From an uncultured Acidobacteriota bacterium (lineage in GTDB: Bacteria > Acidobacteriota > UBA6911): a stretch of 64,000 nucleotides of DNA. The stretch is from positions 64,001 through 128,000 of the forward strand of contig CAWJKZ010000018.1 in NCBI GenBank assembly GCA_963843575.1, written 5' to 3'. The position numbers were made by a program, and so were the translations under genes. The notes under the pieces are model-generated. The model had not been told where the DNA came from, did not search any database, and saw nothing but the letters and a program-made list of their open reading frames with translations. How positions within the stretch are numbered: position 1 is the stretch's first letter; each line of letters opens with the position of its first letter. This document shows, piece after piece, positions 43,110 through 58,318 of the stretch.

Positions 43110-43757
43110 TCAGATGAAGCCCTTCTTGATGGCGTACTTGACAAGGTCGGCGGTCTTGTTGACCTGCAGCTTCGCCATGGCGTTGGCGCGGTGTCGCTCG
43201 ACGGTCCTGGAGCTGATGAAGAGGATTTTCCCGATCTCTTTGCTGGATTTCCCCTCCGCGATGAGTTTGAGCACCTCCCGCTCGCGCAGGGAAAGGGGTT
43301 CGGTGGTGAGGGCGGGGCGCTTGCCGCGGCGCATCTGGGCCCAGTCGTTGCGCGACTCGTCCGCAAGGAACCGGGATATGTAGATCTTGCCCTCCAGAAT
43401 CATATCGATGGCCAGGAAGAGGTCTCTTTCGGCGTCTTCCTTCAAGAGATACCCGTCGGCCCCGGCCGAGATTGCCTCGTTCAGGTAGTCCTGGTCCTTG
43501 TGCATGGTCAGGATGAGGATCTTGGCGGCCGGGCGCATCCGCTTGATTTCGGGGATGGCCTCGATGCCGCGCAGGTGCGGCATCGAGATGTCCAGCAGCA
43601 CCAGATCCGGGTCGGCGGTGCGCAGCAATTCGAGCAGTTCGGGGCCGTTGCCCGCCTCGCCCGCGATCTCGAGGTCTGACCGTTCGGAGAGGATCTTTTG
43701 CAGTCCCTGCCGCAGCAGCAGGTGGTCGTCGGCGAGCACGATCCGGTGTCTGGTCAT
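43110..43757 (-). CDS. NarL/LuxR-family DNA-binding response regulator
   Basis: LADDH, LLDISMP, LSLREREVLKLIAEGKSSKEI, TVERHR; ATGA overlap with the upstream kinase. Confidence 0.95.
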   Translation of the reverse strand: MTRHRIVLADDHLLLRQGLQKILSERSDLEIAGEAGNGPELLELLRTADPDLVLLDISMPHLRGIEAIPEIKRMRPAAKILILTMHKDQDYLNEAISAGADGYLLKEDAERDLFLAIDMILEGKIYISRFLADESRNDWAQMRRGKRPALTTEPLSLREREVLKLIAEGKSSKEIGKILFISSRTVERHRANAMAKLQVNKTADLVKYAIKKGFI

Positions 43758-46438
43758 TCCGCCTTTTCCTGCCTGGCGATAGGTATTGAGATCTGGACAG
43801 TGGTGCCCGCGGCGGGCCTGCTCGTGATCTGGAGGGTCCCGTCGAGCATGCGCACGCGTTCACGCATGATCGTGAGCCCGAGGCTCGGGGTGGCCGGCTG
43901 GGTATTCGGACGAAGCCCGGAGCCGTCGTCAGTAATGAGGCACTCGATGGCGGTGGCGGATGCCTTGAGGCTAACGGCCACGGTGTGCGCGCCTGCGTGG
44001 CGGGCGACGTTGGTGAGCGCCTCCTGGACGACGCGGTACAGGGTGATGTGACGGTCGCGCGGCAGCAGGGGGTCGACGCCATCCAACTCGGTCGTGACCT
44101 CGATGCCGGTGGCCCGGGCAAGATCGTGCCCGAGCCTCCTCAACGCGGCCGAGAGCCCGAGGTCCTCCAGGATGCTCGGGCTGAGGTCGCGCGACAGCCG
44201 GCGCACGCTGTCGATCATGTCGTCGATATACGACCGCATCCCGTCGCATTCGACCTGGAGGTCGCGCTGCTCGGCCGGGAGTTTTTTCACGAAGGAGCCG
44301 AGCCGCAGTTTCAGCAGCGTCATCGACTGCCCGAGTTCGTCGTGCAGTTCCCTGGAGATGCGGCTGCGTTCGGTTTCCTGCGCCGTCAGGAGCTGGGCGG
44401 AGAGGAACCGCAATTCCTCTTCCGAGGCGCGCAAGGCCTCCTCGGACCGTTTGCGCTCGGTGATGTCGTGGAAGAGCTCGAGCTTTCCGATACTGCCGTC
44501 TTGGGTTTCGACGGGTGTGTCGAACAGGTCGTAAGTCTTGCCGGTTTTCGGGGAAGTCCACTCCCAGTGCACGTCGGATCCCGAAAATGCCGGAAGGCTG
44601 GGACACGAGGGGCAGGATTCGTCCATCCCCTTGAAATACTCGTGGCACGTGCGCCCGTCGACGGGTCCAAACTCCTTTTCGAGCCAGGGATTTTTGTATT
44701 CGATCTCGTTGCGTCGGTTGGCGATGTAGATGCCTTGGGGCATGGCGTCCAGGATGCGCTTGAGCTTGTTGCGCTCCTCCTGCACCGCCTGCTCCATGCG
44801 GAGGCGCTCTGTGATGTCGGTTCCCAGTTCCATCACGAGCCGGACGTTGTCGCGCAGGTCGAACGGGTAGTGATAGACGTGGTATTGCCGCCCCTCCGGC
44901 GAAGTCCAGACGCGCTCGGCGGCGGTGTTAGCCCTGAGGACCCTCAAGGTCGGGCAGTCCTCGCACGGCTCGTCGCGTCGCGCCATGACGGTGTAGCACG
45001 GGTTGACGCCGGCATCCCCGAAGATCTCGCGGAACCGGCGGTTGGTGAATTTTACGGAACAGTCTTCGCCGTGCAGGCAGACGAAGGAGGGGAGCCCGTC
45101 CAGGATTTTGAAGAGACGCTGCCGTTCCGAATCGAGCTCCTCGTTGAGGCCTGCCAGCTGTGCCGTGCGCTCGAGGACGCGCTGTTCCAGCTGGTCGTGG
45201 GCCCGCTTGAGCCCTTCCTGTGCCCTGATGCGTTCGATCGCGGGACCGAGCTGCCCGGCTGCGACCTTGACCAGGTCCATCAACGGCAGCATCGCCCTCG
45301 AGTCGGGCAGCCCCGCTAGGTGAATCACTCCCAGTTTGCGCGGGCCCACGCGGATCGGGGCGAGTGCGACGCCGTCGAACCCCTGCGCTCGGCAGGCGTT
45401 CCTGATCCATTGTTCGCGTTGTGGCGGGGACATCGAAACCGCGTCAGATGTTTCGAAGACGCCGGGATCAAAATCGGCGAAGGCGGTGTGTGCCAGTCTC
45501 CCGGCTTCGTCCCAGGTCCAGATGCCCGCAGCGGAACAGCCGGTCAGGCTCCTGATCTTGGCGACGCACTCCTGAAGCAGCGGCTTCACTTCCAGGTGCC
45601 GGTTGGCCAGCATCAGGAACTCGTTGGAGACCTGCAGCACTCGCTGCGTTCTCTTCAGCTCGGAGATGTCGCGCCAGGCCACGACCCCGCCCGTTATTGC
45701 GCCCTGGTCGTCCCGGATCGGCGCGGCGTTGCAGAGCGCGGTGATGACCGAACCGTCGGCCCGGTGCAGGACCCATTCCTCGTTGGTGACTACCTCGCCG
45801 TAGCGCGTGGCCCGCGTGAGCGGGAGCTGCGCCACCGGCGCGGGCTCGCCGGTCGGAGGGGAGCCTTCCCATGCTTCGTGCGCCGGCCGCGCCATATTTT
45901 CCCCCAAACTGGCCCCGCGCAGCATCTCGAGCCCGTACTTGCTGCTGCGCTGTATCGCGGCGTCGGAGGCGTCCGCAATGGTGATCCCCTCCGGGATGTG
46001 TTCCAGCAACGCGTCGAGGGCTCTCTCGTGTTTGCGTGTCTGCTCCAGGTTGCGGCGCAACCGAATCAGCGCGTTAATGGTCGCAATCAGGAGCTCGGGC
46101 TCAACCGGATCGGCCACATAGCTGTCGGCCCCGGAGCCGAGTCCCTGGAGCCTGTCGCTCGAGTGGATGAACTTGGACGAAATTTGCACGACCAGGGTCG
46201 AGGCCGTGCCTGGTTCTGACTTAATCCGGCTGCACACCTCGATCCCCGAGATGTCGGGAAGGCTGACGTCGAGCAGGGCTACCTCCGGGCGCTCGCTCGC
46301 GACGAGCCGGAGAGCCTCCAGCCCCGTGTGCGCCTCGATGACCCGGAACCCGGCGTTGCGCAGGATGAAGCTCCTCATATACAGGACGTCTTCGTTGTCG
46401 TCCACGTTCAGGACGGTGGCGGTCGGTTGCGAGGACAT
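43754..46438 (-). CDS. Hybrid sensor kinase REC-PAS-GAF-like-PAS-PAS-HisKA_3-HATPase
   Basis: LNVDD...LLDVSLPD, PAS/PAC segments, ISRELHDELGQ, QEALTNVARHA, DDGSG, LGLTIMRER. Confidence 0.92.
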   Translation of the reverse strand: MSSQPTATVLNVDDNEDVLYMRSFILRNAGFRVIEAHTGLEALRLVASERPEVALLDVSLPDISGIEVCSRIKSEPGTASTLVVQISSKFIHSSDRLQGLGSGADSYVADPVEPELLIATINALIRLRRNLEQTRKHERALDALLEHIPEGITIADASDAAIQRSSKYGLEMLRGASLGENMARPAHEAWEGSPPTGEPAPVAQLPLTRATRYGEVVTNEEWVLHRADGSVITALCNAAPIRDDQGAITGGVVAWRDISELKRTQRVLQVSNEFLMLANRHLEVKPLLQECVAKIRSLTGCSAAGIWTWDEAGRLAHTAFADFDPGVFETSDAVSMSPPQREQWIRNACRAQGFDGVALAPIRVGPRKLGVIHLAGLPDSRAMLPLMDLVKVAAGQLGPAIERIRAQEGLKRAHDQLEQRVLERTAQLAGLNEELDSERQRLFKILDGLPSFVCLHGEDCSVKFTNRRFREIFGDAGVNPCYTVMARRDEPCEDCPTLRVLRANTAAERVWTSPEGRQYHVYHYPFDLRDNVRLVMELGTDITERLRMEQAVQEERNKLKRILDAMPQGIYIANRRNEIEYKNPWLEKEFGPVDGRTCHEYFKGMDESCPSCPSLPAFSGSDVHWEWTSPKTGKTYDLFDTPVETQDGSIGKLELFHDITERKRSEEALRASEEELRFLSAQLLTAQETERSRISRELHDELGQSMTLLKLRLGSFVKKLPAEQRDLQVECDGMRSYIDDMIDSVRRLSRDLSPSILEDLGLSAALRRLGHDLARATGIEVTTELDGVDPLLPRDRHITLYRVVQEALTNVARHAGAHTVAVSLKASATAIECLITDDGSGLRPNTQPATPSLGLTIMRERVRMLDGTLQITSRPAAGTTVQISIPIARQEKAE

Positions 46439-46762
46439 CTGGACTCCGTGTGGAGGGTGGACATCATTATCTCACTGGAACTTCTGAAGTCAAATGCGGT
46501 TCGGGCCTGCGTGCGGGTTCGTGCCCGCGTCGCCGATCCTGCAATCCACGGAGCCTTTGCGGCGGATCCCGCAGCTCACCTGAAGGAATATCTAATGGAC
46601 TAATAAGCTTCGGCGTCGTGCGTCTATCCAACCACCGGGCCTCGGACTGGGTATTTCTACTTACCGCGGCTTGGGTGTTTGTGCGGATTGATCGGGGTCG
46701 CCTCCGGGCCGACAATGAGCCCACGGGTGAGGAGGCGGTCGCGTTTGCGGAAAATAGTGAAT

Positions 46763-47356
46763 ATGGTTCCGTCCAGATCGACGATCCGGTTGCTCAAAGC
46801 CTTCGTCGTCGTCGCGGCCGTGACGGCCGTGTGCGCCGTTGTTGGCCTGCGCGACCGCACCCGCCCTGCTCCCCACGGTGAGAGCGCCGCCGCGACCCCA
46901 GCCGCCGCCGCCGCCCCTGGCGTCGAGACGCCGGATCACGAGCTGAAGGTCCTGGAGGCCGCCGCGCGCAAGAAGCCCGGGCACGCGCCGGTTCTGTTCA
47001 GGCTGGCCACCCTGGCCGAGGCGGCGGGCCGCGCGGAGGATGCACGGAAATACCTGGAGCAGATCCTGCGGGGGGAGCCGCAAAACCTGGAGGCCAGGCT
47101 CGAACTCGGGAAGGTGATGTTCGGGGCGGGCGACGTCGCCGCGGCCCTGACGCAAACCAACCTTGTCCTGAAGAGCCACCCCGATCACCCGGACGCGCTC
47201 TACAACCTCGGCGCGATCTACGGCAACCTGGGCGACGAGCGCCTGGCCCGGGAGAACTGGATGCGGCTTCTTGCGACCAGCCCCTCGAGCGAAAGCGGCA
47301 GGCGCGCACGGCAGGCCCTCGACCGGCTGGGGGGTGGTCCCGGGGACCGCCCATGA
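46763..47356 (+). CDS. Membrane-anchored/exported TPR-repeat protein
   Basis: N-terminal hydrophobic helix, PQNLEARLELG, HPDALYNLGAIY; ATGA overlap with the next gene; start uncertain. Confidence 0.8.
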   Translation: MVPSRSTIRLLKAFVVVAAVTAVCAVVGLRDRTRPAPHGESAAATPAAAAAPGVETPDHELKVLEAAARKKPGHAPVLFRLATLAEAAGRAEDARKYLEQILRGEPQNLEARLELGKVMFGAGDVAAALTQTNLVLKSHPDHPDALYNLGAIYGNLGDERLARENWMRLLATSPSSESGRRARQALDRLGGGPGDRP

Positions 47357-49287
47357 TGCGCCCGGTCGCGTGGACTGCGGTCGTGGGACTGCTGCTGTCC
47401 TGCGGCGCCCCCGTGTGGGCGCAGATCTCGCCGGGGCCGCTGTCGCAAGCCCACGCCTCTCTGAGCGGCCCGTCGCACTGCGTCGACTGCCACGACGTGG
47501 CGAAGCATCCGCCGGAATACAAGTGCCTGGGATGCCACAACGAAATCCGGCAGCGCCTGGACGAACGCAGAGGACTGCATCCCTCCGAGGTTGGGCAGGA
47601 CCGCACCGGCCGGAGCTGCGTCCGATGCCACTCCGACCACAACGGCCGCGATTTCAACCTCATTCACTGGGACACCGCGGTGGAGAGATTCGATCACCAT
47701 CGTGCCGCGTATGCGCTCGAGGGCAGGCACGCCGGGCTCCCTTGCCGGGCCTGCCACAAACCCGAGCACATCGCCGACCCCGCCGCCCTCAAGACCCGCG
47801 ACCTGGCACGCACCTTCCTTGGCCTGTCGCGACAGTGCGCGTCGTGCCACACCGACGAACACCGGCGGCAGTTGCCCGGCGCGTGCGAGCGCTGCCACAA
47901 TTTCAGGGGGTGGAAAGTCGATCTGAACTTCGACCATGCCAGCGCGAGATTCCAGCTCGACGGGGCGCACGCGCGTGTCGCGTGCGAACGCTGTCACCAC
48001 AGGAGCCAGGACTCCAAGCCCTTTACCCTGTACCGCGGCCTCGACCACAGTCAGTGCTCCTCGTGTCACCGCGATCCGCACCGCGGCTCTTTCCGGGCCG
48101 AGTGCGCGTCCTGCCACTCCACCCGGAACTGGGCGCCGAACCAGGTCGCCTCGGCTTTCGATCACGCCAAGACCGTCTTTCCCCTCAAGGGGAAGCACGT
48201 CGGCCTCGCCTGCCGCTCGTGCCATTCCCAGCCTGACTTCAAGCAGCCCGTGGCCCACGGCCAGTGCGCCGATTGCCACAGGAAGGACCCGCACGGCGGG
48301 CAGTTCGAGCGCCGGGCCGACCGCGGTTCCTGTTCCTCCTGCCACTCGGAGGAGGGATTCAAACCGGCGACCTTCTCTGTCCCCGACCACCAGCGGACGC
48401 GCTTTGCGCTTGAGGGCAAGCACCTTGACGTTGCCTGCGCGAAGTGCCACGTCCCGCGCGGGGCCGACACGGTCTATGCCATGGTTGAGCAGTCGTGCGC
48501 CTCGTGTCACAAGGACCCGCACGGTGGGCAGTTCCAGGGGCCGCCGCACCAGAACCGCTGCGAGCACTGTCACACGACCAGGGGCTTCCGGCCCTCGACC
48601 TTTACCCTCACGCAACACCGCCAGACCGGGTTTGCCCTGACCGGGAGCCACCAGGCCGTGGCGTGCGTCGAGTGCCACGCCGGCTCCGGCTCGACGAGCG
48701 CGAGATACCGGTTTCAGGACACCGGATGCACCGCCTGCCACCGCGACCCTCACCAGGGGGAATTCGCGGCGCGCACCGCCGCATTGCGACCCGATGGCAG
48801 ACCGGCAGGGTGCGAGTCGTGCCACAACACCCTGACCTGGCGCGATCTGTCTAAGTTCGACCACGCCTCGACCCGTTTCGCGCTGCGGGGGATCCATCGT
48901 GGCCTGGCGTGCGAACAATGCCACAAGTCGACGACCTTCAAACCGGGCCTGAGCGGCGCCCTGTTCCGCTCGACGCCCCGCGAGTGCTCCGGGTGCCACG
49001 AGGACCCCCACGGAGGGCAGTTCAGCGGGAACAGCGACTGCGGCCGCTGCCACAACTTGGTGAAGTGGAAGCCGTCGCTCTTCGACCACGCAAAGGACTC
49101 CACCTACTCGCTGCAGGGGGCGCACCAACAGGTCCGCTGCGGGCTCTGCCACGTCAAGCAGAGCGCACCGTCAGGCCGCCCCATCCTGGTATACCGTGGC
49201 ACGCCCCGCACGTGCGGGGCGTGCCACGGACCCGGGTCCCCGCAGCTGACCGGCAGCCTGGAGACGGGAGGGTCGGCGACGCCATGA
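47353..49287 (+). CDS. Exported multiheme cytochrome c, 23 CxxCH motifs
   Basis: 23 CxxCH counted by hand in 644 aa; signal peptide, SPGPLSQAH start, repeated FDH-x3-FxLxGxH and DPH distal-His motifs. Confidence 0.95.
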   Translation: MMRPVAWTAVVGLLLSCGAPVWAQISPGPLSQAHASLSGPSHCVDCHDVAKHPPEYKCLGCHNEIRQRLDERRGLHPSEVGQDRTGRSCVRCHSDHNGRDFNLIHWDTAVERFDHHRAAYALEGRHAGLPCRACHKPEHIADPAALKTRDLARTFLGLSRQCASCHTDEHRRQLPGACERCHNFRGWKVDLNFDHASARFQLDGAHARVACERCHHRSQDSKPFTLYRGLDHSQCSSCHRDPHRGSFRAECASCHSTRNWAPNQVASAFDHAKTVFPLKGKHVGLACRSCHSQPDFKQPVAHGQCADCHRKDPHGGQFERRADRGSCSSCHSEEGFKPATFSVPDHQRTRFALEGKHLDVACAKCHVPRGADTVYAMVEQSCASCHKDPHGGQFQGPPHQNRCEHCHTTRGFRPSTFTLTQHRQTGFALTGSHQAVACVECHAGSGSTSARYRFQDTGCTACHRDPHQGEFAARTAALRPDGRPAGCESCHNTLTWRDLSKFDHASTRFALRGIHRGLACEQCHKSTTFKPGLSGALFRSTPRECSGCHEDPHGGQFSGNSDCGRCHNLVKWKPSLFDHAKDSTYSLQGAHQQVRCGLCHVKQSAPSGRPILVYRGTPRTCGACHGPGSPQLTGSLETGGSATP

Positions 49288-52200
49288 TCCATCGCGTCCA
49301 GACACAGTCACGCTGCCTGCCGCCGTGCACGGTCCCGGTCCTCCTCGGAGTGCTCGGGGTCCTGCTCTCCCTGGCGGCCACGGCTCCGGTGGCCGCCAGC
49401 CAGGAACAGGCGCGCGGACGCACGCGCAACCCGCACGGCCCCCTGCATATCGCCTGCGAGAACTGCCACACATCCACCAGCTGGAGCCCGATCCGGCCGT
49501 CACCCGATTTCTCGCACCGGGAGACGCGCTTCCCGCTGCGCGGGCTGCACACGAACGTCGCCTGCCGACTCTGCCACGTGCGGCTGGAGTTCAGCGACGT
49601 GGGAACACGGTGCGCCGACTGCCACGCCGACATCCACCGGCGCCAGTTCGGCGGCGACTGCGGGCAATGTCACACCGTCCGCGGCTGGAAGGTCACCTCC
49701 CAGGCCATCAAAGGGCACCAGAACCGTTTCCCCTTGCTGGGAGCGCACGCCTCGACCGAGTGCCAGTCCTGCCACAAGAACGCGGCGGCCGGGCAGTTTT
49801 TGGGTCTCAGTACCGAATGCTCGTCCTGTCACCTGAAGGACTACCAGGCGGCGCGCAACCCCGATCACAAGGCGGCAAATCTCCCGGCGACCTGCGCCTC
49901 CTGCCACCGGTTCGATTCGTGGACCGGCGTGGCCTTCGATCATGCCCGATTCACCGGGTTCGCCCTCAGCGGCGCCCACACGCGGCTGTCCTGCGCTGAG
50001 TGCCACACCGGCGGCCGGTATACCGGAACCCCGGCGAACTGTTTCAGCTGCCACGCCCGGGAATACACCTCGACCGGCGACCCCAGCCACACTGCTGCCG
50101 GCTTCCCGACCGATTGTTCAAAGTGCCACACGACGCTGTCGTGGGCCGGCGCTTCCTTTGACCACAACACGACCCGGTTCGCTTTGACCGGGGCCCACTC
50201 CAAGATCGCCAGCTGCACGGCGTGCCATGTCTCCGGACGATTTGCCGGAACTCCATCGGACTGCTACAGCTGCCACATCCGGGACTACGAACGCACCTCC
50301 AACCCCAATCACGGGAAGAGTTCCTTTTCCACCTCGTGCGCCACCTGCCATACGACCGCAGGCTGGGCCGGCGCAAAGTTCGACCACAGCCTCGCGCGCT
50401 TTGCGCTGACCGGCGCCCATCTGCAGGCTCCCTGCGCGTCCTGCCACAAGAACGGCCAATACACCGGCACCCCGGCCGATTGCGCAAGCTGTCACCTTGC
50501 CGACTTCAACGGCACGAAAGACCCAAACCACGCGGCCGCGGGCTTCCCGCAGACGTGCGAGACCTGCCACACGACGACGCAGTGGAAGGGGGCGAAGTTC
50601 GACCACAACACCGGAACGAAGTTCCCGCTGACGGGGGCGCACGCGCGGGTGGACTGCGCGTCGTGCCACAAGAACGGCCAGTACAAGGGGACGTCGACGG
50701 ATTGCGTCGGCTGCCACCTGGCCGATTTCAACGGCACGAAAGATCCGAACCACACGGCCGCGGGCTTCCCGCAGACGTGCGAGACCTGCCACACGACGAC
50801 GCAGTGGAAAGGGGCGAAGTTCGACCACAACACGGGAACGAAGTTCCCGCTGACGGGGGCGCACGCGCGGGTGGATTGCGCGTCCTGCCACAAAAACGGC
50901 CAGTACCGGGGAACGTCGACGGATTGCGTCGGCTGCCACCTGGCCGATTTCAACGGCACGAAAGATCCGAACCACACGGCCGCGGGCTTCCCGCAGACGT
51001 GCGAGACCTGCCACACGACGACGCAGTGGAAGGGGGCGAAGTTCGACCACAGCACGGGAACGAAGTTCCCGCTGACGGGGGCGCACGCGCGGGTGGATTG
51101 CGCGTCCTGCCACAAAAACGGCCAGTACCGGGGAACGTCGACGGATTGCGTCGGCTGCCACCTGGCCGATTTCAACGGCACGAAAGATCCGAACCACACG
51201 GCCGCGGGTTTCCCGCAGACGTGCGAGACCTGCCACACGACGACGCAGTGGAAGGGGGCGAAGTTCGACCACAGCACGGGAACGAAGTTCCCGCTGACGG
51301 GGGCGCACGCCCGGGTGGATTGCGCGTCGTGCCACAAAAACGGCCAGTACCGCGGGCTCCCTGCGAGCTGCGTGTCGTGTCACAGGGCCGCATACGACAG
51401 CACTACGAACCCGAACCACTCGGCAGCCGGTTTCCCGCAGGATTGCGCGGCGTGCCACGGCACCTCGCAGTGGAGTGGAGCCCGTTTCGACCACAACGCC
51501 GCGACGAAGTTCCCGCTGACCGGCGCTCACGTGGCCGTGTCCTGCAAGGAGTGCCACGCGGGGGACCGTTTCGCGGGCACACCCGCGGACTGCTACTCCT
51601 GCCACAGCGCCGCCTACACCGGAACGAAGAACCCGCCGCACGTGTCCTCGGGGTTCCCTCGGGACTGCACCCTGTGTCACTCCACCTCGGGCTGGCAGGG
51701 CGCCGTTTTCGACCACAGCCGGACGCGCTTCACGTTGACGGGTGCGCACACGACCGCCCAGTGCGTGCAATGCCACGTCAACAACGTGTTTGCAGGGACA
51801 CCCACCCAGTGTGTCGCCTGCCATCTTTCGGAATACGGCAAAACCACGAACCCGAATCACGCGGCCGCGGGTTTCCCGCAAGACTGCTCACTGTGCCACG
51901 CGACTACAGGCTGGCAGGGCGCGAAGTTCGACCACACCGCCACCAAGTTCCCGTTGACCGGGGCGCACGTCGCCGCGAGCTGTGCTGCTTGTCACTCCGG
52001 TGGCGTCTACGCCGGGCTGAACACCTCCTGCGTGTCGTGCCACCTGACGAATTTCAACAACACACGCAACCCGGACCATAAGGCCGGCGGTTTCCCCCAG
52101 CAGTGCGAAATCTGTCACGGCACGGCCGCCTGGACGCCTGCGTCCTTCGATCACGCCAGAACGGGGTTCCCGCTCACCGGGGCCCACACCTCGGTCCAGT

Positions 52201-52580
52201 GCGTCAACTGTCACGTCGGGGGGAGATACCAGGGAACCCCGACCGATTGCTACTCGTGCCACCAACTCGAATACCGGAGTGTCACCGACCCGAACCACGC
52301 GGCGGCCGGTTTCCCGACCAACTGCACCCTCTGCCACACCACGGCCACCTGGAGCGGTGCGAAGTTCAACCACACCTTTCCGATCTATTCGGGGTCCCAC
52401 GCGGGCAAGTGGAACACCTGCGGCGAGTGCCATCCGAACTCGAGCAACTACTCCGTCTTCTCGTGTACCAATTGCCACGAGCACGAAAAGACGAAAATGG
52501 ACCAGGAACACCGGGATGTACGGAACTATGTTTACAACAGCGCCAACTGCTACTCGTGCCATCCGAACGGGCGGCATTAG
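49284..52580 (+). CDS. Giant exported multiheme cytochrome c, 43 CxxCH motifs (1098 aa)
   Basis: Start reassigned to ATG 49284 (ATGA overlap, followed by a signal peptide); 43 CxxCH counted by hand, arranged in tri-heme modules of about 74 aa. Confidence 0.95.
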   Translation: MIHRVQTQSRCLPPCTVPVLLGVLGVLLSLAATAPVAASQEQARGRTRNPHGPLHIACENCHTSTSWSPIRPSPDFSHRETRFPLRGLHTNVACRLCHVRLEFSDVGTRCADCHADIHRRQFGGDCGQCHTVRGWKVTSQAIKGHQNRFPLLGAHASTECQSCHKNAAAGQFLGLSTECSSCHLKDYQAARNPDHKAANLPATCASCHRFDSWTGVAFDHARFTGFALSGAHTRLSCAECHTGGRYTGTPANCFSCHAREYTSTGDPSHTAAGFPTDCSKCHTTLSWAGASFDHNTTRFALTGAHSKIASCTACHVSGRFAGTPSDCYSCHIRDYERTSNPNHGKSSFSTSCATCHTTAGWAGAKFDHSLARFALTGAHLQAPCASCHKNGQYTGTPADCASCHLADFNGTKDPNHAAAGFPQTCETCHTTTQWKGAKFDHNTGTKFPLTGAHARVDCASCHKNGQYKGTSTDCVGCHLADFNGTKDPNHTAAGFPQTCETCHTTTQWKGAKFDHNTGTKFPLTGAHARVDCASCHKNGQYRGTSTDCVGCHLADFNGTKDPNHTAAGFPQTCETCHTTTQWKGAKFDHSTGTKFPLTGAHARVDCASCHKNGQYRGTSTDCVGCHLADFNGTKDPNHTAAGFPQTCETCHTTTQWKGAKFDHSTGTKFPLTGAHARVDCASCHKNGQYRGLPASCVSCHRAAYDSTTNPNHSAAGFPQDCAACHGTSQWSGARFDHNAATKFPLTGAHVAVSCKECHAGDRFAGTPADCYSCHSAAYTGTKNPPHVSSGFPRDCTLCHSTSGWQGAVFDHSRTRFTLTGAHTTAQCVQCHVNNVFAGTPTQCVACHLSEYGKTTNPNHAAAGFPQDCSLCHATTGWQGAKFDHTATKFPLTGAHVAASCAACHSGGVYAGLNTSCVSCHLTNFNNTRNPDHKAGGFPQQCEICHGTAAWTPASFDHARTGFPLTGAHTSVQCVNCHVGGRYQGTPTDCYSCHQLEYRSVTDPNHAAAGFPTNCTLCHTTATWSGAKFNHTFPIYSGSHAGKWNTCGECHPNSSNYSVFSCTNCHEHEKTKMDQEHRDVRNYVYNSANCYSCHPNGRH
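50433..51352 (+). repeat. Intragenic 222-bp tandem repeat, about 4 near-identical copies (74 aa and 3 hemes each)
   Basis: acggcacgaaaga recurs at 50509, 50731, 50953 and 51175 (spacing 222). Confidence 0.95.
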
Positions 52581-54231
52581 CGTCGCGGGCCTCTGGTGGC
52601 TGGCCTGGCTTGTGTGTTGCGGCAACGCGGTCGCGCAGACGGGCGACCCGGGGGTGAGGGACCGCTTCCGCGTCAAATACGTCGCCGAGGGGGCCGTCTA
52701 TCTCGAAGGCGGACGCTCCGCCGGGTTGGCCGAAGGCCAGCGCCTGACGCTGCGGCGCGGCGAAAACAGCGGCGCCGAGGCCGTCGCCGAACTGCGGGTT
52801 TTTTCCGTGGCATCGGCGTCGGCCGTGTGCGAGGTGGTGTCGTCGGACGGGCCGGTCGAGCCGGGCGATGTCGCCTACCTGTCCACCGAGGACGTGCAAC
52901 GCCTGCGGTTGCTCAAGGATAGCCGGGAATCCAGGAAGTACCCGCAGGTAATCTCGTTCACGGAAGGAGATCCGCTCGACGAGGAGGCCAGGGAAAGCGT
53001 GCCGCGCCCTCCACTGCCGGAGATCAACCGCGCGCGCGGGAGGTTCGGGTTCGAATACAGCTCCATCCGGGACCGCGAGGCACAAGGCACCGGTTCGAGC
53101 CAGCTCGGCGGCGTGGTGCGCGCCGACATGACGCGCGTGGGCGGTACCCACTGGAACTTCAGCGGCTATTACCGCGGCCGCTTCACCTCGCGCAGCCGTG
53201 CGCAGCAGGAGACCCTGACCGATCTGATCAACCGCACCTACCATCTCAGCCTTTCCTACAACAACCCCGGCTCGAATTGGGTGGCCGGTTTCGGGCGCCT
53301 GTATCTCCCGTGGGCGAGCAGCCTCAACACGATCGACGGCGGCTATGTCGGACGCCGTCGCGGCAAACACACCGTCTTCGGCCTGTTCGGCGGATCCACC
53401 CCCGACCCCACCACCTGGAACTACACTCCCGGCCGCCAGATCGCCGGCAGCTTCGTCAACTTCGAAGCCGGCCACTTCGAGTCTTTCCGTTACACGAGCA
53501 CGTCGGGCGTCGCGCTCGCCAGGGTCCACTGGCACCCCGACCGCCAATTCGGTTTTTTCGAAAACGGGTTCTTCTACAAGGGTCTCTTTTCGCTCTATCA
53601 CAACCTGGAAGCTGACCTGCTGCGCGGTGCGCCCGAGGCGCCGGCCAGCGGGCTGGTGGCCAGCCGGAGCTACCTTACGATTCGGGTGCAGCCCAACCGG
53701 TTTGTGGTCTTCGACCTGAATCACAACTACTTCCGGAACATCCCCACCTTCGACGAGCGGCTGGTCGGGACCGGTCTGCTGGACAAGCTCCTGTTCCAGG
53801 GCGTGAGCGGCGGCGTCCGGTTGGAGCTCCCGTATTCCATCAGCCCGTACTTCAGCCTCGGCCGCAGCGACCGGACGGGGGACGCCCGGACGGCCTGGAA
53901 CCGGATGTTCGGTGTCGTAGTGCGCCGCGTCTGGAAGACGGGTTTGCGCGCCGATGCGAGATATTCCAGCTTCGACAGCTCCTTCGGCCGTGGCACGTAC
54001 CGCTCGCTGTCGTTGTCGCGGGAGTTGGGCGAGCGGTTCCGCTTCGACGTGCAGGCCGGCGATCAGGATCTGGTGTCGGCGATGACCCGGGACAACCGCG
54101 CCCGTTGGCTCAACGCGGACGCCGATTGGTTCCTCGGCCCGCACTATTTCCTCGGGGCGGGCGTTACGTTTTATCGCGGGCGGGCGCAGAGTTACGACCA
54201 GTGGTTCCTGAACCTGGGCTACCGGTTTTGA
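52528..54231 (+). CDS. Outer-membrane beta-barrel protein with a small N-terminal beta domain (FlgT C-terminal-like)
   Basis: Signal-like GLWWLAWLVCCGNAVA-Q, many alternating aromatic/Gly/Arg strands, C-terminal beta-signal WFLNLGYRF. Start inferred; overlaps the cytochrome 3' end by 53 nt. Confidence 0.8.
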   Translation: MFTTAPTATRAIRTGGISVAGLWWLAWLVCCGNAVAQTGDPGVRDRFRVKYVAEGAVYLEGGRSAGLAEGQRLTLRRGENSGAEAVAELRVFSVASASAVCEVVSSDGPVEPGDVAYLSTEDVQRLRLLKDSRESRKYPQVISFTEGDPLDEEARESVPRPPLPEINRARGRFGFEYSSIRDREAQGTGSSQLGGVVRADMTRVGGTHWNFSGYYRGRFTSRSRAQQETLTDLINRTYHLSLSYNNPGSNWVAGFGRLYLPWASSLNTIDGGYVGRRRGKHTVFGLFGGSTPDPTTWNYTPGRQIAGSFVNFEAGHFESFRYTSTSGVALARVHWHPDRQFGFFENGFFYKGLFSLYHNLEADLLRGAPEAPASGLVASRSYLTIRVQPNRFVVFDLNHNYFRNIPTFDERLVGTGLLDKLLFQGVSGGVRLELPYSISPYFSLGRSDRTGDARTAWNRMFGVVVRRVWKTGLRADARYSSFDSSFGRGTYRSLSLSRELGERFRFDVQAGDQDLVSAMTRDNRARWLNADADWFLGPHYFLGAGVTFYRGRAQSYDQWFLNLGYRF

Positions 54232-54239
54232 CTGCGGAA

Positions 54240-54335
54240 AGCCGGACGCGGTATTTCGCCAGGCCGATCCGTGTGGATCCGCGCAAATCCGCGTCCTGAA
54301 AAATAGGTCAGCGTATTTGTGAACATCAGTACTAA
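54240..54335. repeat. Partial CGGAT hairpin / MITE copy with a 48-bp terminus, inside the cytochrome operon
   Basis: 54288-54335 tccgcgtcctgaaaaataggtcagcgtatttgtgaacatcagtactaa matches both ends of the 14779-14990 element. Confidence 0.8.
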
Positions 54336-54347
54336 GGCAGGAGACGC

Positions 54348-55145
54348 ATGAGAAGCGGAACTTTCGCGTTGTGGCTGTTCATCCTCGGCACGAGCCCCGT
54401 CGCCGGTGCGAAGAAACCTGCGCCCCCGGTAGGATCGCTCCCGATCGCGGATCTCATAGACAGGGTCGGAGAGAACGTCGAGGCTTTCGGGACGAGGTTT
54501 TCCGAGGTCAGCTGCACCGAATCGGTCGTACAGGCGAAGCTCGACAAGGCGGGGAAGGTGCTCTACCACCAGGAATCGGCTTTCGATTACCTGATCCTGA
54601 TGAATCTCCAGGGCGAGGAGCCGTCGCTCGAAGAATCCCGCGTGGTTCAAAAACAGGCCAAGGCGGCGGCAAACCTGCCACTGCTTCTCACCAGCGGGTT
54701 CCCGACGCTGCAGCTCGTCTTCCACCCCTACTACCAGGCCGGCTTCACCTATGAGCGACTGCCTGACGACCCGGCGGACGGCAAGGTTTTTGTGCGCATC
54801 CGGTTCCGCCACATCAAGGGAGCGCGCTCGACCTCAGCCCTGAGGCTGCGCGGCAGGGACTTCCCGCTCGACCTGGAAGGGACGGCGTGGGTGGATCCCG
54901 ACTCGGCTGCCATCGCGCGCATCACGGCGGGCCTGGAGTTCCCCGCCGAGGACCTGGGGTTGCAGTCCCTCCAGACCGACGTGCGTTACGCGGACACGCG
55001 CTTCCCCGGCATCGAGACCACCTACTCGCTCCCGGTCGTGGCGACCGTGGAGGTGGAAACGCCGCGGCAGCGGTGGCGCAACACGCACCGGTTCTCCGCC
55101 TACCGGCTCTTCTCGGTGCGCTCCGAGAGCACGGTGTCCAAATGA
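54348..55145 (+). CDS. Exported hypothetical beta-rich protein, 265 aa
   Basis: AGGAG RBS, signal peptide, CTESV, GTAWVDP...IARI, HRFSAYRLFSV; ATGA overlap with the next gene. Confidence 0.8.
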   Translation: MRSGTFALWLFILGTSPVAGAKKPAPPVGSLPIADLIDRVGENVEAFGTRFSEVSCTESVVQAKLDKAGKVLYHQESAFDYLILMNLQGEEPSLEESRVVQKQAKAAANLPLLLTSGFPTLQLVFHPYYQAGFTYERLPDDPADGKVFVRIRFRHIKGARSTSALRLRGRDFPLDLEGTAWVDPDSAAIARITAGLEFPAEDLGLQSLQTDVRYADTRFPGIETTYSLPVVATVEVETPRQRWRNTHRFSAYRLFSVRSESTVSK

Positions 55146-56074
55146 GCAAAAGCCTGACGGAACTGGTTGTAGGCTCCGCCGCCGCCGTCGAGCTCCCGCG
55201 CGAGCGGGGGCATCGGGCGGCGATCCTGCTTCTCGCGCTCGCGGCCGCGGCGCTGATGGTCGCGCTGACGCTGTACGGCTTCGACTACTACTGGCTGGAT
55301 CAGGTGAGCCGGCCCCATTCTCCCAAGCACGCCCAGCTGAGGCCCGGAGGCGTCGTCGGGATCAGGCTGGGCATCCTGGGGATAGTGCTTTTATTCTTGA
55401 TCTATCTTTACCCGATCCGGAAACGCTGGGCCTGGCTGGGTAGCAAGGGGAGCACCAAGCACTGGTTCGACTATCACATCCTCCTCGGGCTCGTCGCCCC
55501 GGTGGTCGTCAGCTTCCATGCGTCCTTCAAGGCCCAGGGGCTGGCGGGGTTGGCCTACTGGACGATGGCCGTCCTGACGGCGAGCGGCATCGTGGGGCGG
55601 TACCTCTACGCGCAGATTCCCAGAAGCCGCGCCGCCGCCGAGAGCTCGCTGAAGCAGCTCGAGGCCTCCAGCACCCAGCGCGGCCGGATGGTGGAGGCCT
55701 CGGCCGGGTTTGCCCAGGTGGTGCGGCTGCCGGATATCAGGGAGGTGCAGGCGATGTCGTCGGTGCGGGCGCTCTGGCTGATGCTCGCCTGGGACCTCCA
55801 ACAGCCGCTGCTCCTGTGGAGGGTGAGACGACGCCTCTCCCCTGGACGCGGGCTGCTGACTTTGGGCGGGGTGCTGTCGACAGGCGACGCCGCCCTCGAG
55901 CAGGCTATCCGCGAGACCCGGCGCCAGGTGGTCATGACCAGGAAAATCCTCCTCCTGTCCAAGGCGGAGAAGATCTTTCACCTCTGGCACGTCCTGCACC
56001 GGCCCTTCAGCATATCGCTCGCCATCCTGGTGCTGCTCCACTTGGCCATCGTGTTTCTGTTCGGTTACTACTGA
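55142..56074 (+). CDS. Inner-membrane protein, ferric-reductase / cytochrome-b-like with two His-x13-His helices
   Basis: Start at ATG 55142; about 5 TM helices; YH-ILLGLVAPVVVSF-H and LH-RPFSISLAILVLL-H; SGIVGRYLY motif. Confidence 0.75.
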   Translation: MSKSLTELVVGSAAAVELPRERGHRAAILLLALAAAALMVALTLYGFDYYWLDQVSRPHSPKHAQLRPGGVVGIRLGILGIVLLFLIYLYPIRKRWAWLGSKGSTKHWFDYHILLGLVAPVVVSFHASFKAQGLAGLAYWTMAVLTASGIVGRYLYAQIPRSRAAAESSLKQLEASSTQRGRMVEASAGFAQVVRLPDIREVQAMSSVRALWLMLAWDLQQPLLLWRVRRRLSPGRGLLTLGGVLSTGDAALEQAIRETRRQVVMTRKILLLSKAEKIFHLWHVLHRPFSISLAILVLLHLAIVFLFGYY

Positions 56075-56102
56075 CATCCGAGAGGCGAAGGCGTCCCTGG
56101 CA

Positions 56103-57485
56103 ATGATCGACGAACTCTTCATATACGCCATCCTGGCCCTTGTCCTCGTTGTTCCCGCGGTCGTCTATTTCAGCCGCATGCGGAGGCGCGAGGCCCGGGC
56201 GCTAGCCGCCCTCGAAAAGGGGAAGCTCTTCTCGGAGCGCCCGCCCGTACAACACCCCAGCATCGACCTTGCGCGCTGCATCGGTTGCGGCACCTGCGTC
56301 AGCGCCTGCCCCGAGGGGGACGTGCTGGCGATCGTGGCCGGACGGGCAGCCATCGTCAACGGCCACAAGTGCATCGGCCACGCCCTCTGCGCCGAAGCGT
56401 GCCCCGTGGGCGCCATCACGATGACCATGGGGGATCCCAGCGTCGGCGCCGACATCCCGCACCTCAGCGCGGAATACGAGACCAACATACCCGGCATGTT
56501 CGTCGTCGGCGAACTCGGTGGCCTGGCGCTGATCAGGAATGCGGTCAACCAGGGCCGGGAGTGCATCGACACGATCGTCCGCAGGCTGGCCGCGGACCGC
56601 GCTGCTGCGGGGGAAGACGATCCCTACGACGTCTGCGTCGTGGGCGCCGGGCCGGCGGGCATCAGCGCCTCGCTGCGCGCCATCGAGAAGAAACTGAGCT
56701 ACATCACTCTGGAACAGGACGAGATCGGCGGCACAGTCGCCAAGTACCCGCGCCAGAAACTCGTCATGACCAGCCCCGTGGAGTTCCCGATGTACGGCCG
56801 CTTCCGCAAGCTCGAGATCTCCAAGGAGAACCTGATGGAATTCTGGCAGACGGTCTTCCGGCGCGCGGATTTCAAAGTGCTCACGGGCGAAAAGGTCGAG
56901 CACATCACACGGGAACCGGATGCCACCTTCCGGGTCCGCGGCGTGAAAGGGGAATACCGCGCGCGCACCGTCATCCTGGCGCTCGGCAGGAGGGGAACGC
57001 CGCGCAAGCTGGGCATCCTGGGGGAGGGCTTGCCCAAGGTCATGTACAGCCTCATCGAGGCGGAATCCTACACCGATAAGAAAATCCTCGTGGTCGGGGG
57101 CGGTGACAGTGCCGTGGAGGCCGCCATGGGGCTCGCGCATCAGCCGGGCAACACCGTCACCCTCTCCTACCGCAAGGACGCCTTTGCCCGCATCAAAGAA
57201 CGCAACAGCCGGAAAATCGAGGAGTTTATCCGCGCCGGAAAAATCCGGGTCCTGTTCAACTCCAATCCCGTCGAGATCCGGGAAGGCTCCGTCCTGCTCG
57301 ACGTTCAGGGGACGCCGCTGGAAATGCCCAACGACTTCGTCTGGGTTTTCGCCGGCGGTACCCCGCCCAGGGATTTCCTGCAGAAAGTCGGCGTCGTGCT
57401 CGGCCGCGAAGACTTCACCCGCGAAACGCACGACGAGGCGCAGCGCGCCCGGAGCGAGTCCTCCCAGCCGATCCTGCCGAGCTAA
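56103..57485 (+). CDS. Membrane-anchored ferredoxin fused to a TrxB-fold FAD/NAD(P)H oxidoreductase lacking CxxC
   Basis: N-terminal TM helix; CIGCGTCVSACP and CIGHALCAEACP; VGAGPAG (FAD), LALG, VGGGDSA (NAD(P)H), SYRK. Confidence 0.88.
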   Translation: MIDELFIYAILALVLVVPAVVYFSRMRRREARALAALEKGKLFSERPPVQHPSIDLARCIGCGTCVSACPEGDVLAIVAGRAAIVNGHKCIGHALCAEACPVGAITMTMGDPSVGADIPHLSAEYETNIPGMFVVGELGGLALIRNAVNQGRECIDTIVRRLAADRAAAGEDDPYDVCVVGAGPAGISASLRAIEKKLSYITLEQDEIGGTVAKYPRQKLVMTSPVEFPMYGRFRKLEISKENLMEFWQTVFRRADFKVLTGEKVEHITREPDATFRVRGVKGEYRARTVILALGRRGTPRKLGILGEGLPKVMYSLIEAESYTDKKILVVGGGDSAVEAAMGLAHQPGNTVTLSYRKDAFARIKERNSRKIEEFIRAGKIRVLFNSNPVEIREGSVLLDVQGTPLEMPNDFVWVFAGGTPPRDFLQKVGVVLGREDFTRETHDEAQRARSESSQPILPS

Positions 57486-57670
57486 GCTAATGCATATCCG
57501 CGCAATACAAGCATATTGAACTGCAATTTCGATACTGCTAGGATTGGGCCGTCGGGGCCGGTGGCAGGGTGATCGAGCCTTGGTGCCGAGTGAGGTTATA
57601 GCCGCGAGCCGCCCCGGTTCGTCCCCGCCTGCCGACGCCGCGACGGGCCGGCCACGGACTCTATGATGCC

Positions 57671-58318
57671 ATGACGAAATGCCGCTTGATTCTCGCCGAC
57701 GATCACCTCCTGGTGAGGCAGGGATTGAGGAGGATACTCGCCCAGCGCCCGGACCTGGAGGTGGTGGGGGAAGTGGGGGACGGGCTGGCGTTGCTTGGGG
57801 CGCTGTCGAGGCTGGCTCCGGACCTCGTGCTCCTCGATCTGTCGATGCCCAACCTGCGGGGGATCGAAGCGATTCCGGAGCTCAAGAGAAGCAGGCCGAA
57901 TATGAAAGTGCTGGTGCTCACGATGCACCGGGACCCGGAGTACCTCTATCAAGCTATCGCCGCCGGGGCGGACGGCTATTTGTTGAAGGAGGACGCCGAC
58001 AGCGACCTCTTCTCCGCCATCGATACGGTCGTGGGCAACCGGGTCTACGTCTCCAAGTTCCTCTCGGAGCAGTCGCGCCGCGACTGGGCGGCGCTTCGCC
58101 GGGGCGGCGACCCCGGCACGGGCGCAGATGCGCTGTCGGTGCGTGAGCGCGAGGTGTTGAAGCTGATCGCGGAGGGGAAATCGAGCAGGGAGATCGGCAC
58201 GCTGCTGCACATAAGCGGGCGCACGGTCGAGCGGCACCGAGCCAACATGATGGACAGGCTGAACGTCCGAAGCACGGTCGAGTTGGTGAAGTACGCCGTG
58301 AGCAAGGGGTACGTCTGA
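57671..58318 (+). CDS. NarL/LuxR-family response regulator, close paralog of 43110-43757
   Basis: Both are 215 aa; shared LRGIEAIPE, AGADGYLLKEDA, SRxDWA and REREVLKLIAEGKSS. Confidence 0.95.
   Translation: MTKCRLILADDHLLVRQGLRRILAQRPDLEVVGEVGDGLALLGALSRLAPDLVLLDLSMPNLRGIEAIPELKRSRPNMKVLVLTMHRDPEYLYQAIAAGADGYLLKEDADSDLFSAIDTVVGNRVYVSKFLSEQSRRDWAALRRGGDPGTGADALSVREREVLKLIAEGKSSREIGTLLHISGRTVERHRANMMDRLNVRSTVELVKYAVSKGYV

Follow-up and report, generated by a model that had tools for sequence, protein, structure and literature searches.

The window analysed here is a stretch of 64,000 nucleotides from an uncultured Acidobacteriota bacterium (assembly GCA_963843575.1, contig CAWJKZ010000018.1, positions 64,001 to 128,000 of the forward strand). 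At positions 46763-57485 it carries seven genes, g1 to g7 (Table 1), which, judged from their sequences, probably encode an electron conduit of PCC3 type that spans the envelope and is fed by an NAD(P)H-linked module in the cytoplasm. An open reading frame (ORF) check found all seven ORFs at their coordinates on the + strand, in agreement with the preliminary description of this DNA. The ATGA overlaps that it had noted at 47353, 49284 and 55142 were seen in their sequence contexts, as was the g3/g4 overlap at 52528-52580, where the ATG of g4 lies inside the end of g3 (52580). Its figure of 66 c-heme sites was reproduced as well, with 23 CxxCH motifs counted in g2, 43 in g3 and zero CxxxCH or CxxxxCH sites in either protein.

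PCC3 was defined computationally in 2017 as a unit consisting of a porin, a multiheme cytochrome (MHC) that is extracellular, another that is periplasmic and an inner-membrane protein (IMP) that is conserved and about 300 residues long (He et al. 2017, Front Microbiol 8:1584, PMC5566968). The extracellular MHC was reported to have a median of 34 and up to 85 hemes and the periplasmic MHC a median of 21 (PMC5566968); in Gallionellaceae the periplasmic subunits carry 21, 24 or 27 hemes and the extracellular ones 10-35 (Hoover et al. 2023, PMC10734462). The window cluster resembles this unit in several respects. Its barrel gene adjoins an MHC gene (g4 beside g3), g2 with 23 hemes and a low number of residues per heme compares with the 21-27 hemes published for the periplasmic MHC, and g3, a second, repeat-built MHC, compares with its 43 hemes to the published 10-85. 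The gene order is that of a Burkholderiales genome in which 24- and 49-heme cytochromes precede the porin (Arbour et al. 2020, PMC7399161). The PCC3 IMP has five helices, with SGXXG on helix 4 and WX3HX13H on helices 3 and 5 (PMC5566968); g6 shares the length of about 300 residues, the five transmembrane (TM) helices, SGxxG and two W-x3-H-x13-H motifs. The match was judged by the published architecture and motif descriptions.

The cluster also departs from the published system. PCC3 has been described as a four-gene unit of Alpha-, Beta- and Gammaproteobacteria, whereas the host of the window belongs to Acidobacteriota. The window IMP is followed by an Fe-S flavoprotein (conserved, substituted in one clade and fused in some proteins), whereas the partner proposed in print for the IMP is quinones, and the window has an additional exported protein, g5, translationally coupled to the IMP. 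The best-supported interpretation of these sequences is the electron path of the preliminary description within a PCC3-type cluster, which here takes a flavoprotein-coupled form with g5 in Acidobacteriota. The preliminary description, which knew of no characterised system with this layout, understated what is in print, namely a computationally defined system whose function has been described as untested (bioRxiv 10.1101/2025.02.27.639646). We found no literature that links PCC3 to Acidobacteria or describes its flavoprotein partner, Tables S3 and S4 of He et al. lying outside this search. The available part of that paper identifies no NAD(P)H flavoprotein partner for PCC3 and notes smaller, porin-free clusters of "MHC + IMP + other redox protein" (Table S6; PMC5566968).

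The cluster recurs far beyond chance. A search with g6 found it whole in five genomes of the same family (45-66% identity). Scanning one genome per species with an IMP alignment yielded at least 544 encoding stretches, and the best 80 loci were analysed as close loci; nearly all come from Acidobacteriota metagenome-assembled genomes (MAGs), and four are the same contigs as the family relatives. The order cytochrome-cytochrome-barrel-g5-IMP was kept in all 80 as far as the contigs reach, so the synteny search proposed earlier has shown that the genes do co-occur in other genomes. A g7 homologue was present in 77 of the 80, directly downstream on the same strand in 73 and elsewhere in the cluster in four, and the three loci without one end 132-503 nt past the IMP. 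Across the phylum, the IMP was detected at E<=1e-20 in 46 of 401 evenly sampled Acidobacteriota genomes and in 43 of 228 genera. The phylum-sample loci comprise 46 IMP loci from 45 genomes, the window's own genome excluded, and in every one with enough flanking sequence, large cytochromes adjoin the IMP.

Homologues of g7 were found in 31 of the 46 phylum-sample loci, two of the matches being partial or weak (L132, L148). In seven other loci, which have no g7 homologue, an unrelated FNR-type flavoprotein is encoded directly upstream of the IMP; it combines FAD_binding_6 and NAD_binding_1 with a C-terminal plant-type [2Fe-2S] Fer2 domain and also touches NAD_binding_6, the "Ferric reductase NAD binding domain". 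The N-terminal ~90-140 residues of these FNR-type proteins hold weakly hydrophobic, His-containing helices. Neither flavoprotein was seen in eight loci, which comprise four that lie within 50-1347 nt of a contig end, one IMP fragment, two kinase fusions and locus L128. In the IMP tree (52 rows), the seven FNR-partnered IMPs form one clade (support 97/88), and the window IMP belongs to an 18-row clade (100/100), the only one with g5.

The IMP itself, g6, is predicted to carry electrons across the membrane by two b hemes, as an IMP of the PCC3/PCC4 type. Its motifs W108-x3-H112-x13-H126, S148-G-x-x-G152 and W282-x3-H286-x13-H300 are invariant across 25 close homologues. In 22 diverse homologues (26-43% identity), the four His residues, S148, G149, G152 and W282 are invariant and W108 is kept in at least 90%; the two His-x13-His helices recognized in the preliminary description are thus kept in both alignments. 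The AlphaFold2 model is all-helical, with five long helices (pLDDT 77.4). Counts of Lys and Arg suggest that the N-terminus, the 90-110 loop and the large helical domain 158-271 are in the cytoplasm, in which case His112 and His286 would lie near the cytoplasmic face and His126 and His300 near the periplasmic face. The H-x13-H spacing is common to g6 and the ferric-reductase domain, although g6 has five helices and that domain six. A wide VIA-align search with the g6 model retrieved generic helical hairpins only (best Z 9.1 over 67 residues). The family is large: of the 1.84 billion cluster representatives searched, 5032 matched the IMP profile at E<=1e-3, and 1151 did so at E<=1e-30. He et al. 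saw a likeness of the PCC3 IMP to cytochrome b and the ferric-reductase domain, and suggested that it holds two b hemes and exchanges electrons with quinones (PMC5566968).

The flavoprotein g7 proved to be the TM-anchored ferredoxin-flavoprotein that had been read from the sequence, with a TM helix, a Fer4 dicluster domain and a Pyr_redox_3 domain (Pfam Pyr_redox_3, E 2.8e-41; Fer4_21, E 7.2e-11; also Fer4_10). The single TM helix is N-terminal and is directly followed by seven Lys and Arg residues, which suggests that the body of the protein is cytoplasmic. Invariant in 25 orthologues are C59/62/65/69, C90/H93/C96/C100, the GAGPxG motif for FAD, the GGGDSA motif for a second nucleotide and S355-Y-R357...R363. 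The first ferredoxin motif is complete (C-x2-C-x2-C-x3-C-P). In the second, C90-x2-H93-x2-C96-x3-C100-P, a His that is invariant in 25 of 25 sequences replaces the second Cys, and this cluster may be either a [4Fe-4S] cluster with a His ligand or a [3Fe-4S] cluster. The basic residues of S355-Y-R357...R363 resemble the HRRxxxR 2'-phosphate site of thioredoxin reductases, which we take as a hint at NADPH. The nearest solved proteins are YpdA/Bdr, thioredoxin reductases and ferredoxin-NADP reductases of the thioredoxin reductase type. With YpdA/Bdr and thioredoxin reductases g7 has only the fold class in common, and it scores below the curated cut-offs of TIGR04018 (165.9 vs 339.9) and TIGR01292 (83.1 vs 343.45). 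A role as thiol-disulfide reductase for heme attachment was considered and rejected: seven of the nine Cys residues lie in the ferredoxin domain and the flavin domain has no CxxC. Because the cofactor motifs are kept and the CxxC disulfide is absent, g7 is not regarded as a thiol reductase. Some g7 orthologues (L045, L053, L056 and L091) are 611-616 residues long and have a C-terminal extension of ~150 residues that is absent from the window g7.

The association of g6 with a flavoprotein extends to natural fusions. Five longer proteins matched g6, and four of them are fusions with a Fer4 + Pyr_redox_3 flavoprotein, in the order IMP-flavoprotein in P0128 and flavoprotein-IMP in P0130, P0131 and P0132. 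All keep both W-x3-H-x13-H motifs, and both orders are compatible with the topology proposed above. Modelling of the g6+g7 complex, which the preliminary description had suggested, gave a score of 0.37 (runs 0.37, 0.38 and 0.36), the best of three controls reaching 0.00; at least 58% of contacts are common to the runs, and the pLDDT of the partners is at least 70. Of 157 solved complexes, 116 reach the mark applied to such predictions, as do 2 of 215 mismatched pairs, and the passes with a score of 0.60 or less comprise 18 of the 157 solved complexes and both passing mismatches. The prediction stood above its controls and was classed as "weak support".

Both cytochromes matched Cytochrome_C7/c3 families (Pfam, NCBIfam), and they differ in how constant their length is. 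In g2 (Cytochrome_C7, E 5e-30), exactly 23 CxxCH motifs occur in 43 of 48 complete orthologous ORFs; g2 gave no match among PDB sequences at E<=1e-3, and reached 34.6 bits with the DmsE/MtrA decaheme model TIGR03508 (cut-off 192.2), with which g3 gave no match. We infer that g2 is a periplasm-spanning wire and the counterpart of the periplasmic MHC of PCC3. The second cytochrome, g3 (Cytochrome_C7, E 2.6e-48, 12 stretches), is built from triheme c7-like modules. It contains a 222-bp tandem repeat (4.1 copies, 95% identity, 50433-51352), the unit of which encodes 74 residues with three CxxCH motifs. Its orthologues carry 9-76 CxxCH motifs, and in 42 of 59 the number is 1 mod 3, which fits growth by triheme modules. 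Variable in length, g3 would act as a wire at the outer face or outside the cell. The 222-bp repeat points to a recent expansion of triheme modules, and repetition of this kind probably also leads to assembly errors that affect the heme counts of MAGs. In three loci (L085:2098-6297, L028 and L081), the cytochrome genes are broken into several shorter CxxCH-bearing ORFs, six pieces with 5-9 hemes each in L085, which may reflect frameshifts from sequencing or assembly or else gene decay.

The earlier reading of g4 as a barrel ending in YRF was borne out by modelling. The AlphaFold2 model (m74450232d689, built with 24 homologues, mean pLDDT 70.5) comprises a small N-terminal beta domain (residues 46-118) and, after a linker of poor model quality, 22 antiparallel strands (169-566), and the C-terminus is ...GYRF. 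Foldseek aligned it with 268 PDB chains at E<=1e-3; the matches listed are outer-membrane barrels or barrel domains (MOMP, the FimD/PapC ushers, OccK/OprD, AlgE and an autotransporter), with low TM-scores of 0.16-0.49. MtrB is absent among these listed matches, which leaves room for a distant relation, and g4 matched no Pfam or NCBIfam family, the MtrB type included. The model therefore describes g4 as a barrel without a close solved relative. An alternative start codon lies at ATG 52516, and both ATGs are situated inside the 3' end of g3. Many of the close loci (L021, L023, L028, L038 and others) have a gap of ~1-1.5 kb between the second cytochrome and the tblastn match of the barrel, unlike the window, where the two genes overlap; either the barrel ORFs are extended at the N-terminus by long stretches rich in Ala, Pro and Ser, or the gap may hold a further small gene.

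From these data the following electron path can be proposed, every step of which is drawn from comparative evidence, that is, adjacency, substitution by an analogous enzyme and fusions. NAD(P)H would reduce the FAD of membrane-anchored g7 at the cytoplasmic face, and the electrons would pass through the two Fe-S clusters of g7, one of them with the invariant His for Cys, to the cytoplasm-side heme b of g6 (His112/His286). They would then move across the membrane to the second heme b, on the periplasmic side (His126/His300), enter the fixed-length, periplasm-spanning 23-heme g2, plugged into the 22-strand barrel g4, and leave via the modular 43-heme g3 to an insoluble or polymeric acceptor, which could be a partner cell, an Fe(III) or Mn(IV) mineral, or organic matter in humic or particulate form. 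Such a path would need no quinone step. The conserved pairing, the FNR-type substitution and the fusions all fit the sequence NAD(P)H > FAD > Fe-S > heme b > cytochromes c. On a more specific reading, which we put forward tentatively, the cluster encodes a split NOX-like, quinone-free NAD(P)H:extracellular-acceptor oxidoreductase, with a new five-helix di-heme-b family and a wire of ~66 c hemes.

Several points weigh against the proposal of an NAD(P)H-fed PCC3-type conduit. Heme binding by g6, the cofactors of g7, the localisation of g2 and g3, the donor and the acceptor are all inferred. The g6 model found nothing in the PDB with Foldseek at E<=1e-3, and because it has no significant solved structural relative, the term "di-heme b" is derived from the motifs; no Pfam family, Ferric_reduct (PF01794) included, matched g6 at E<=0.01, nor did any NCBIfam model. 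The fusions are gene calls on metagenome contigs with 1-5 member sequences each, the complex prediction was a weak pass, and the switch of partner counts once since the seven FNR-partnered IMPs form a single clade. At locus L128 the IMP is accompanied by a 51-heme cytochrome, and no flavoprotein is encoded within the 5 kb of flank. In the published descriptions, as far as they were available, proteobacterial PCC3 consists of four genes without a flavoprotein (PMC5566968; PMC8788666; bioRxiv 10.1101/2025.02.27.639646), and both PCC3 clusters of Sideroxydans ES-1 are down-regulated on Fe(II) (PMC8788666).

In the published hypothesis, the IMP exchanges electrons with the quinone pool (PMC5566968). 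The most serious rival, though an unlikely one in our view, is that the IMP acts as a quinone-active cytochrome b, through which the cytochrome wire would be joined to this pool. The flavoprotein would then feed or drain a local quinone/heme b site or have an unrelated job, e.g. redox maintenance. This model draws on the analogy made by He et al. with cytochrome b as it occurs in the bc1 complex and in [NiFe] hydrogenase (PMC5566968), and both the four-gene proteobacterial clusters and L128 would suit it. On the other side, no evidence of a quinone site exists, and a flavoprotein or its FNR-type substitute lies beside the IMP in 38 of the 46 phylum-sample loci, half of the eight exceptions being those close to a contig end. 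Fusions of IMP and flavoprotein in both orders, and an unrelated NAD-binding Fe-S flavoprotein that holds the same position in one clade, also argue for the flavoprotein as the partner. The route from NAD(P)H to the cytochromes suggested in the preliminary description has thus gained comparative support, and its potential bypass of quinones differs from the published quinone model.

Electron flow outward from NAD(P)H is the likeliest direction of the proposed conduit, since it is downhill to Fe(III), humics and electrodes and assisted by the membrane potential. Because the membrane potential favours electron export, the path alone would build no proton-motive force; without energy conservation, it would therefore most likely serve as a redox valve that re-oxidises NAD(P)H when acceptors are limiting. 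The preliminary description had added that the system could also run inward, which is unlikely on thermodynamic grounds for its NAD(P)-linked end. The reduction potential of NAD(P)+ is about -320 mV, and its reduction from Fe(II) or humics would be strongly uphill and also directed against the membrane potential, while nothing in the cluster suggests energy coupling. We thus consider it quite improbable that electrons from Fe(II), Mn(II), a cathode or reduced humics enter the conduit and pass through g6 and g7 to NAD(P)+ or another cytoplasmic acceptor. Uptake would accord with the discovery of PCC3 in Fe(II)-oxidising bacteria and its proposal as a possible Fe(II) oxidase (PMC5566968; PMC10734462), and with the description of multiheme conduits as reversible (PMC10734462). 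In iron-oxidising Sideroxydans CL21, the inner-membrane component of one PCC3 copy is up, and PCC3 expression tracks Fe(II) oxidation only partly (bioRxiv 10.1101/2025.02.27.639646). The down-regulation of both ES-1 clusters on Fe(II) (PMC8788666) speaks against uptake, and most carriers in our data are uncultured Acidobacteriota known from MAGs. Similarly improbable is that the cluster is no respiratory conduit at all, and that its heme proteins serve as an electron store (capacitor), a role raised for such heme-dense proteins (PMC7399161; PMC10734462), or as a periplasmic or surface reductase that detoxifies metals, metalloids or oxidants with reducing power from g6 and g7: the matches of g2 to the ExtN/ExtO models of selenite/tellurite operons, which would point to detoxification, are far under the NCBIfam cut-off (33 bits vs 200), and the obligatory barrel and the length-variable second cytochrome argue for reach beyond the outer membrane.

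The two remaining genes of the cluster differ in their conservation. The exported unknown of the preliminary description, g5, has a signal-like N-terminal segment (read by eye) and matched no Pfam or NCBIfam family; among 22 members only scattered chance-level Pfam matches appeared, and the single match among PDB sequences had an E of 0.69. An Atlas feature search pointed, at low shares, to clusters of the "outer membrane lipoprotein-sorting protein family" and to MucB_RseB/TP_0789-like ones, so that a LolA/RseB-like fold is possible as a lead. The g5 stop overlaps the g6 start by 4 bp, an overlap that recurs in the listed orthologues, and g5 occurs in 78 of the 80 close loci and in only 9 of the 46 phylum-sample loci, all nine in the IMP clade of the window. 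We propose for g5 the role of a periplasmic accessory, confined to this clade and coupled to g6 in translation. The TPR gene g1 (TPR_19, E 1.6e-15, plus further TPR families; TM-like segment at residues 10-28), in contrast, had been counted as a member of the cluster and is not conserved as one: a homologue was found in only 3 of the 80 close loci, at varying positions, and in two of the five family relatives, the former number being a lower bound since many loci stop short upstream of the first cytochrome. Its TPR_CcmH_CycH score was 25.3 bits (cut-off 42). We regard g1 as a local add-on, speculatively a CcmI/CycH-like helper in cytochrome c maturation.

Conduits of the Mtr and Pcc/Ext types draw electrons from the quinone pool, with CymA, ImcH and CbcL as quinol-oxidising inputs. 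MtrCAB of Shewanella and Pcc/Ext of Geobacter resemble the proposed system in placing a periplasmic MHC in a barrel together with an outer cytochrome. The window system has two to four times more hemes, a predicted barrel of 22 strands and no match above cut-off to models of their families; a gene like those for CymA, ImcH or CbcL is absent from the cluster, and the candidate input is NAD(P)H-linked. In NOX/FRE enzymes, an FRD membrane domain with two b hemes is joined to FAD and NADPH domains, and MsrQ-Fre of E. coli is a two-component version. Both lead electrons from cytoplasmic NAD(P)H through flavin and two bis-His b hemes to an acceptor across the membrane, as proposed for the window, and the FNR-type partner of seven loci belongs to the same FAD_binding_6/NAD_binding_1 fold class. 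In contrast, the window reductase is encoded as a protein of its own, which has a TM anchor, additional Fe-S clusters and a thioredoxin reductase rather than FNR fold, and its acceptor would be a multiheme cytochrome instead of O2, an Fe(III) chelate or MsrP. Hmc and Tmc of sulfate reducers link a periplasmic MHC via a membrane cytochrome b to a cytoplasmic Fe-S protein, which is likewise proposed here. Their subunits are unrelated to those of the window (HmcA model 20-67 bits, NCBIfam cut-off 400), they have no outer-membrane barrel, and their cytoplasmic end is HdrD-like, whereas that of the window is an NAD(P)H flavoprotein. Other clusters of Acidobacteriota and Verrucomicrobiota, with 8-13-heme cytochromes, were described in a peat preprint, the text of which, figures and supplements aside, does not contain the words "inner membrane", "NAD" or "flavo" (10.64898/2026.05.27.727921). 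The porin-MHC cluster of Verrucomicrobia (PMC5615132), with 8-heme cytochromes, was set aside as a different system.

The core of the cluster is not confined to close relatives. As the preliminary description had thought possible, related clusters exist in other genomes, both in the Acidobacteriota sample and, as found by tblastn of plasmids, on pEMTOL02 of Emticicia oligotrophica DSM 17448 (NC_018749, 78197-90781). The order there is ccsA, IMP, flavoprotein, 23-heme cytochrome, 40-heme cytochrome, barrel and a GW-domain protein. Identities are 29% to g6, 41% to g7, 36% to g2 (23 CxxCH), 43% to g3 (40 CxxCH) and 23% to g4 (E 6e-16), and the existing annotation lists the IMP and the barrel as hypothetical, the flavoprotein as an NAD(P)-binding protein and the cytochromes as cytochrome c3 family. 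The replicon is a 100-kb plasmid of a cultured member of Bacteroidota, and its ccsA is a 1028-residue fused maturation gene. This suggests that the module travels with its own maturation factor, possibly by horizontal transfer. The known phyla most common among look-alike clusters in the Atlas were Gemmatimonadota and Verrucomicrobiota. The check for maturation genes recommended earlier found a CcmC-like, two CcmF-like and a CcmE gene in the window's genome, which is 88% complete, and in the same genome neither ResB nor a second cluster of this cytochrome type was found.

In two Acidobacteriota genomes (L113:9495-11564 on the - strand, and L146 with the IMP at 1319-2224), the IMP-like five-helix module forms the C-terminal half of a 689-residue protein whose N-terminal half is a Ser/Thr kinase (Pkinase, E 2.4e-51). 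These kinase-fused IMPs form a clade of their own (100/100) and adjoin 33-heme and 8-heme cytochromes without a flavoprotein; they may be redox-sensing transmembrane kinases.

The genes that flank the cluster include several for signal transduction (Table 1), which are candidate regulators of the cluster; a MacB/FtsX permease is also encoded downstream. A scan of 46300-57800 for promoters and terminators gave one promoter-like and five terminator-like sites, not above shuffled sequences.

Table 1 Features of the cluster and its flanks, and FNR-type partners of the IMP in phylum-sample loci
Feature	Coordinates	Strand	Basis or position
g1, TM-anchored TPR protein, 197 residues	46763..47356	+	TPR families and TM segment
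g2, 23-heme c-type cytochrome, 644 residues, 28 residues per heme	47353..49287	+	CxxCH count, Cytochrome_C7
g3, 43-heme c-type cytochrome, 1098 residues, 25.5 residues per heme	49284..52580	+	CxxCH count, Cytochrome_C7
g4, predicted outer-membrane beta-barrel, 567 residues from ATG 52528	52528..54231	+	AlphaFold2, Foldseek
g5, exported protein, 265 residues, family unassigned	54348..55145	+	Signal-like N-terminus
g6, inner-membrane protein (IMP), 310 residues, five helices	55142..56074	+	Motifs, AlphaFold2
g7, membrane-anchored Fe-S flavoprotein, 460 residues	56103..57485	+	Pfam, TM segment, motifs
MEDS+PAS histidine kinase, 1260 residues	37150-40932	-	Flank of cluster
Receiver+PAS+HisKA_3 hybrid kinase plus LuxR-type response regulator	43110-46438	-	Divergent, upstream of cluster
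Second LuxR-type response regulator	57671-58318	+	Directly downstream of cluster
FNR-type partners of the IMP	L109:7660-9111; L111:7916-9325; L112:9927-11270 (-); also L130, L136, L139, L142		

If the proposed reading is correct, an NAD(P)H-fed conduit would represent a different coupling of metabolism to an extracellular acceptor, nearer to redox balancing than to respiration, and the published PCC3 model of exchange between IMP and quinones would need revision. The kinase-fused members of the IMP family would in that case also serve as transmembrane redox sensors. The idea is testable, since a homologous six-gene set is present in cultured Emticicia oligotrophica and the natural fusions provide single-polypeptide constructs. 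The conduit would be common, given the 5032 cluster representatives of the IMP family and the occurrence of the IMP in 46 of the 401 Acidobacteriota genomes. A non-energy-conserving "electron exhaust" would then be a property of roughly one Acidobacteriota species in nine and of members of other phyla. According to the peat preprint, Acidobacteriota predominate in northern peat, a habitat for which the question of the missing electron acceptor is still open (10.64898/2026.05.27.727921). In anoxic soils and peat, these bacteria would re-oxidise NAD(P)H on minerals and on humic or particulate organic matter.

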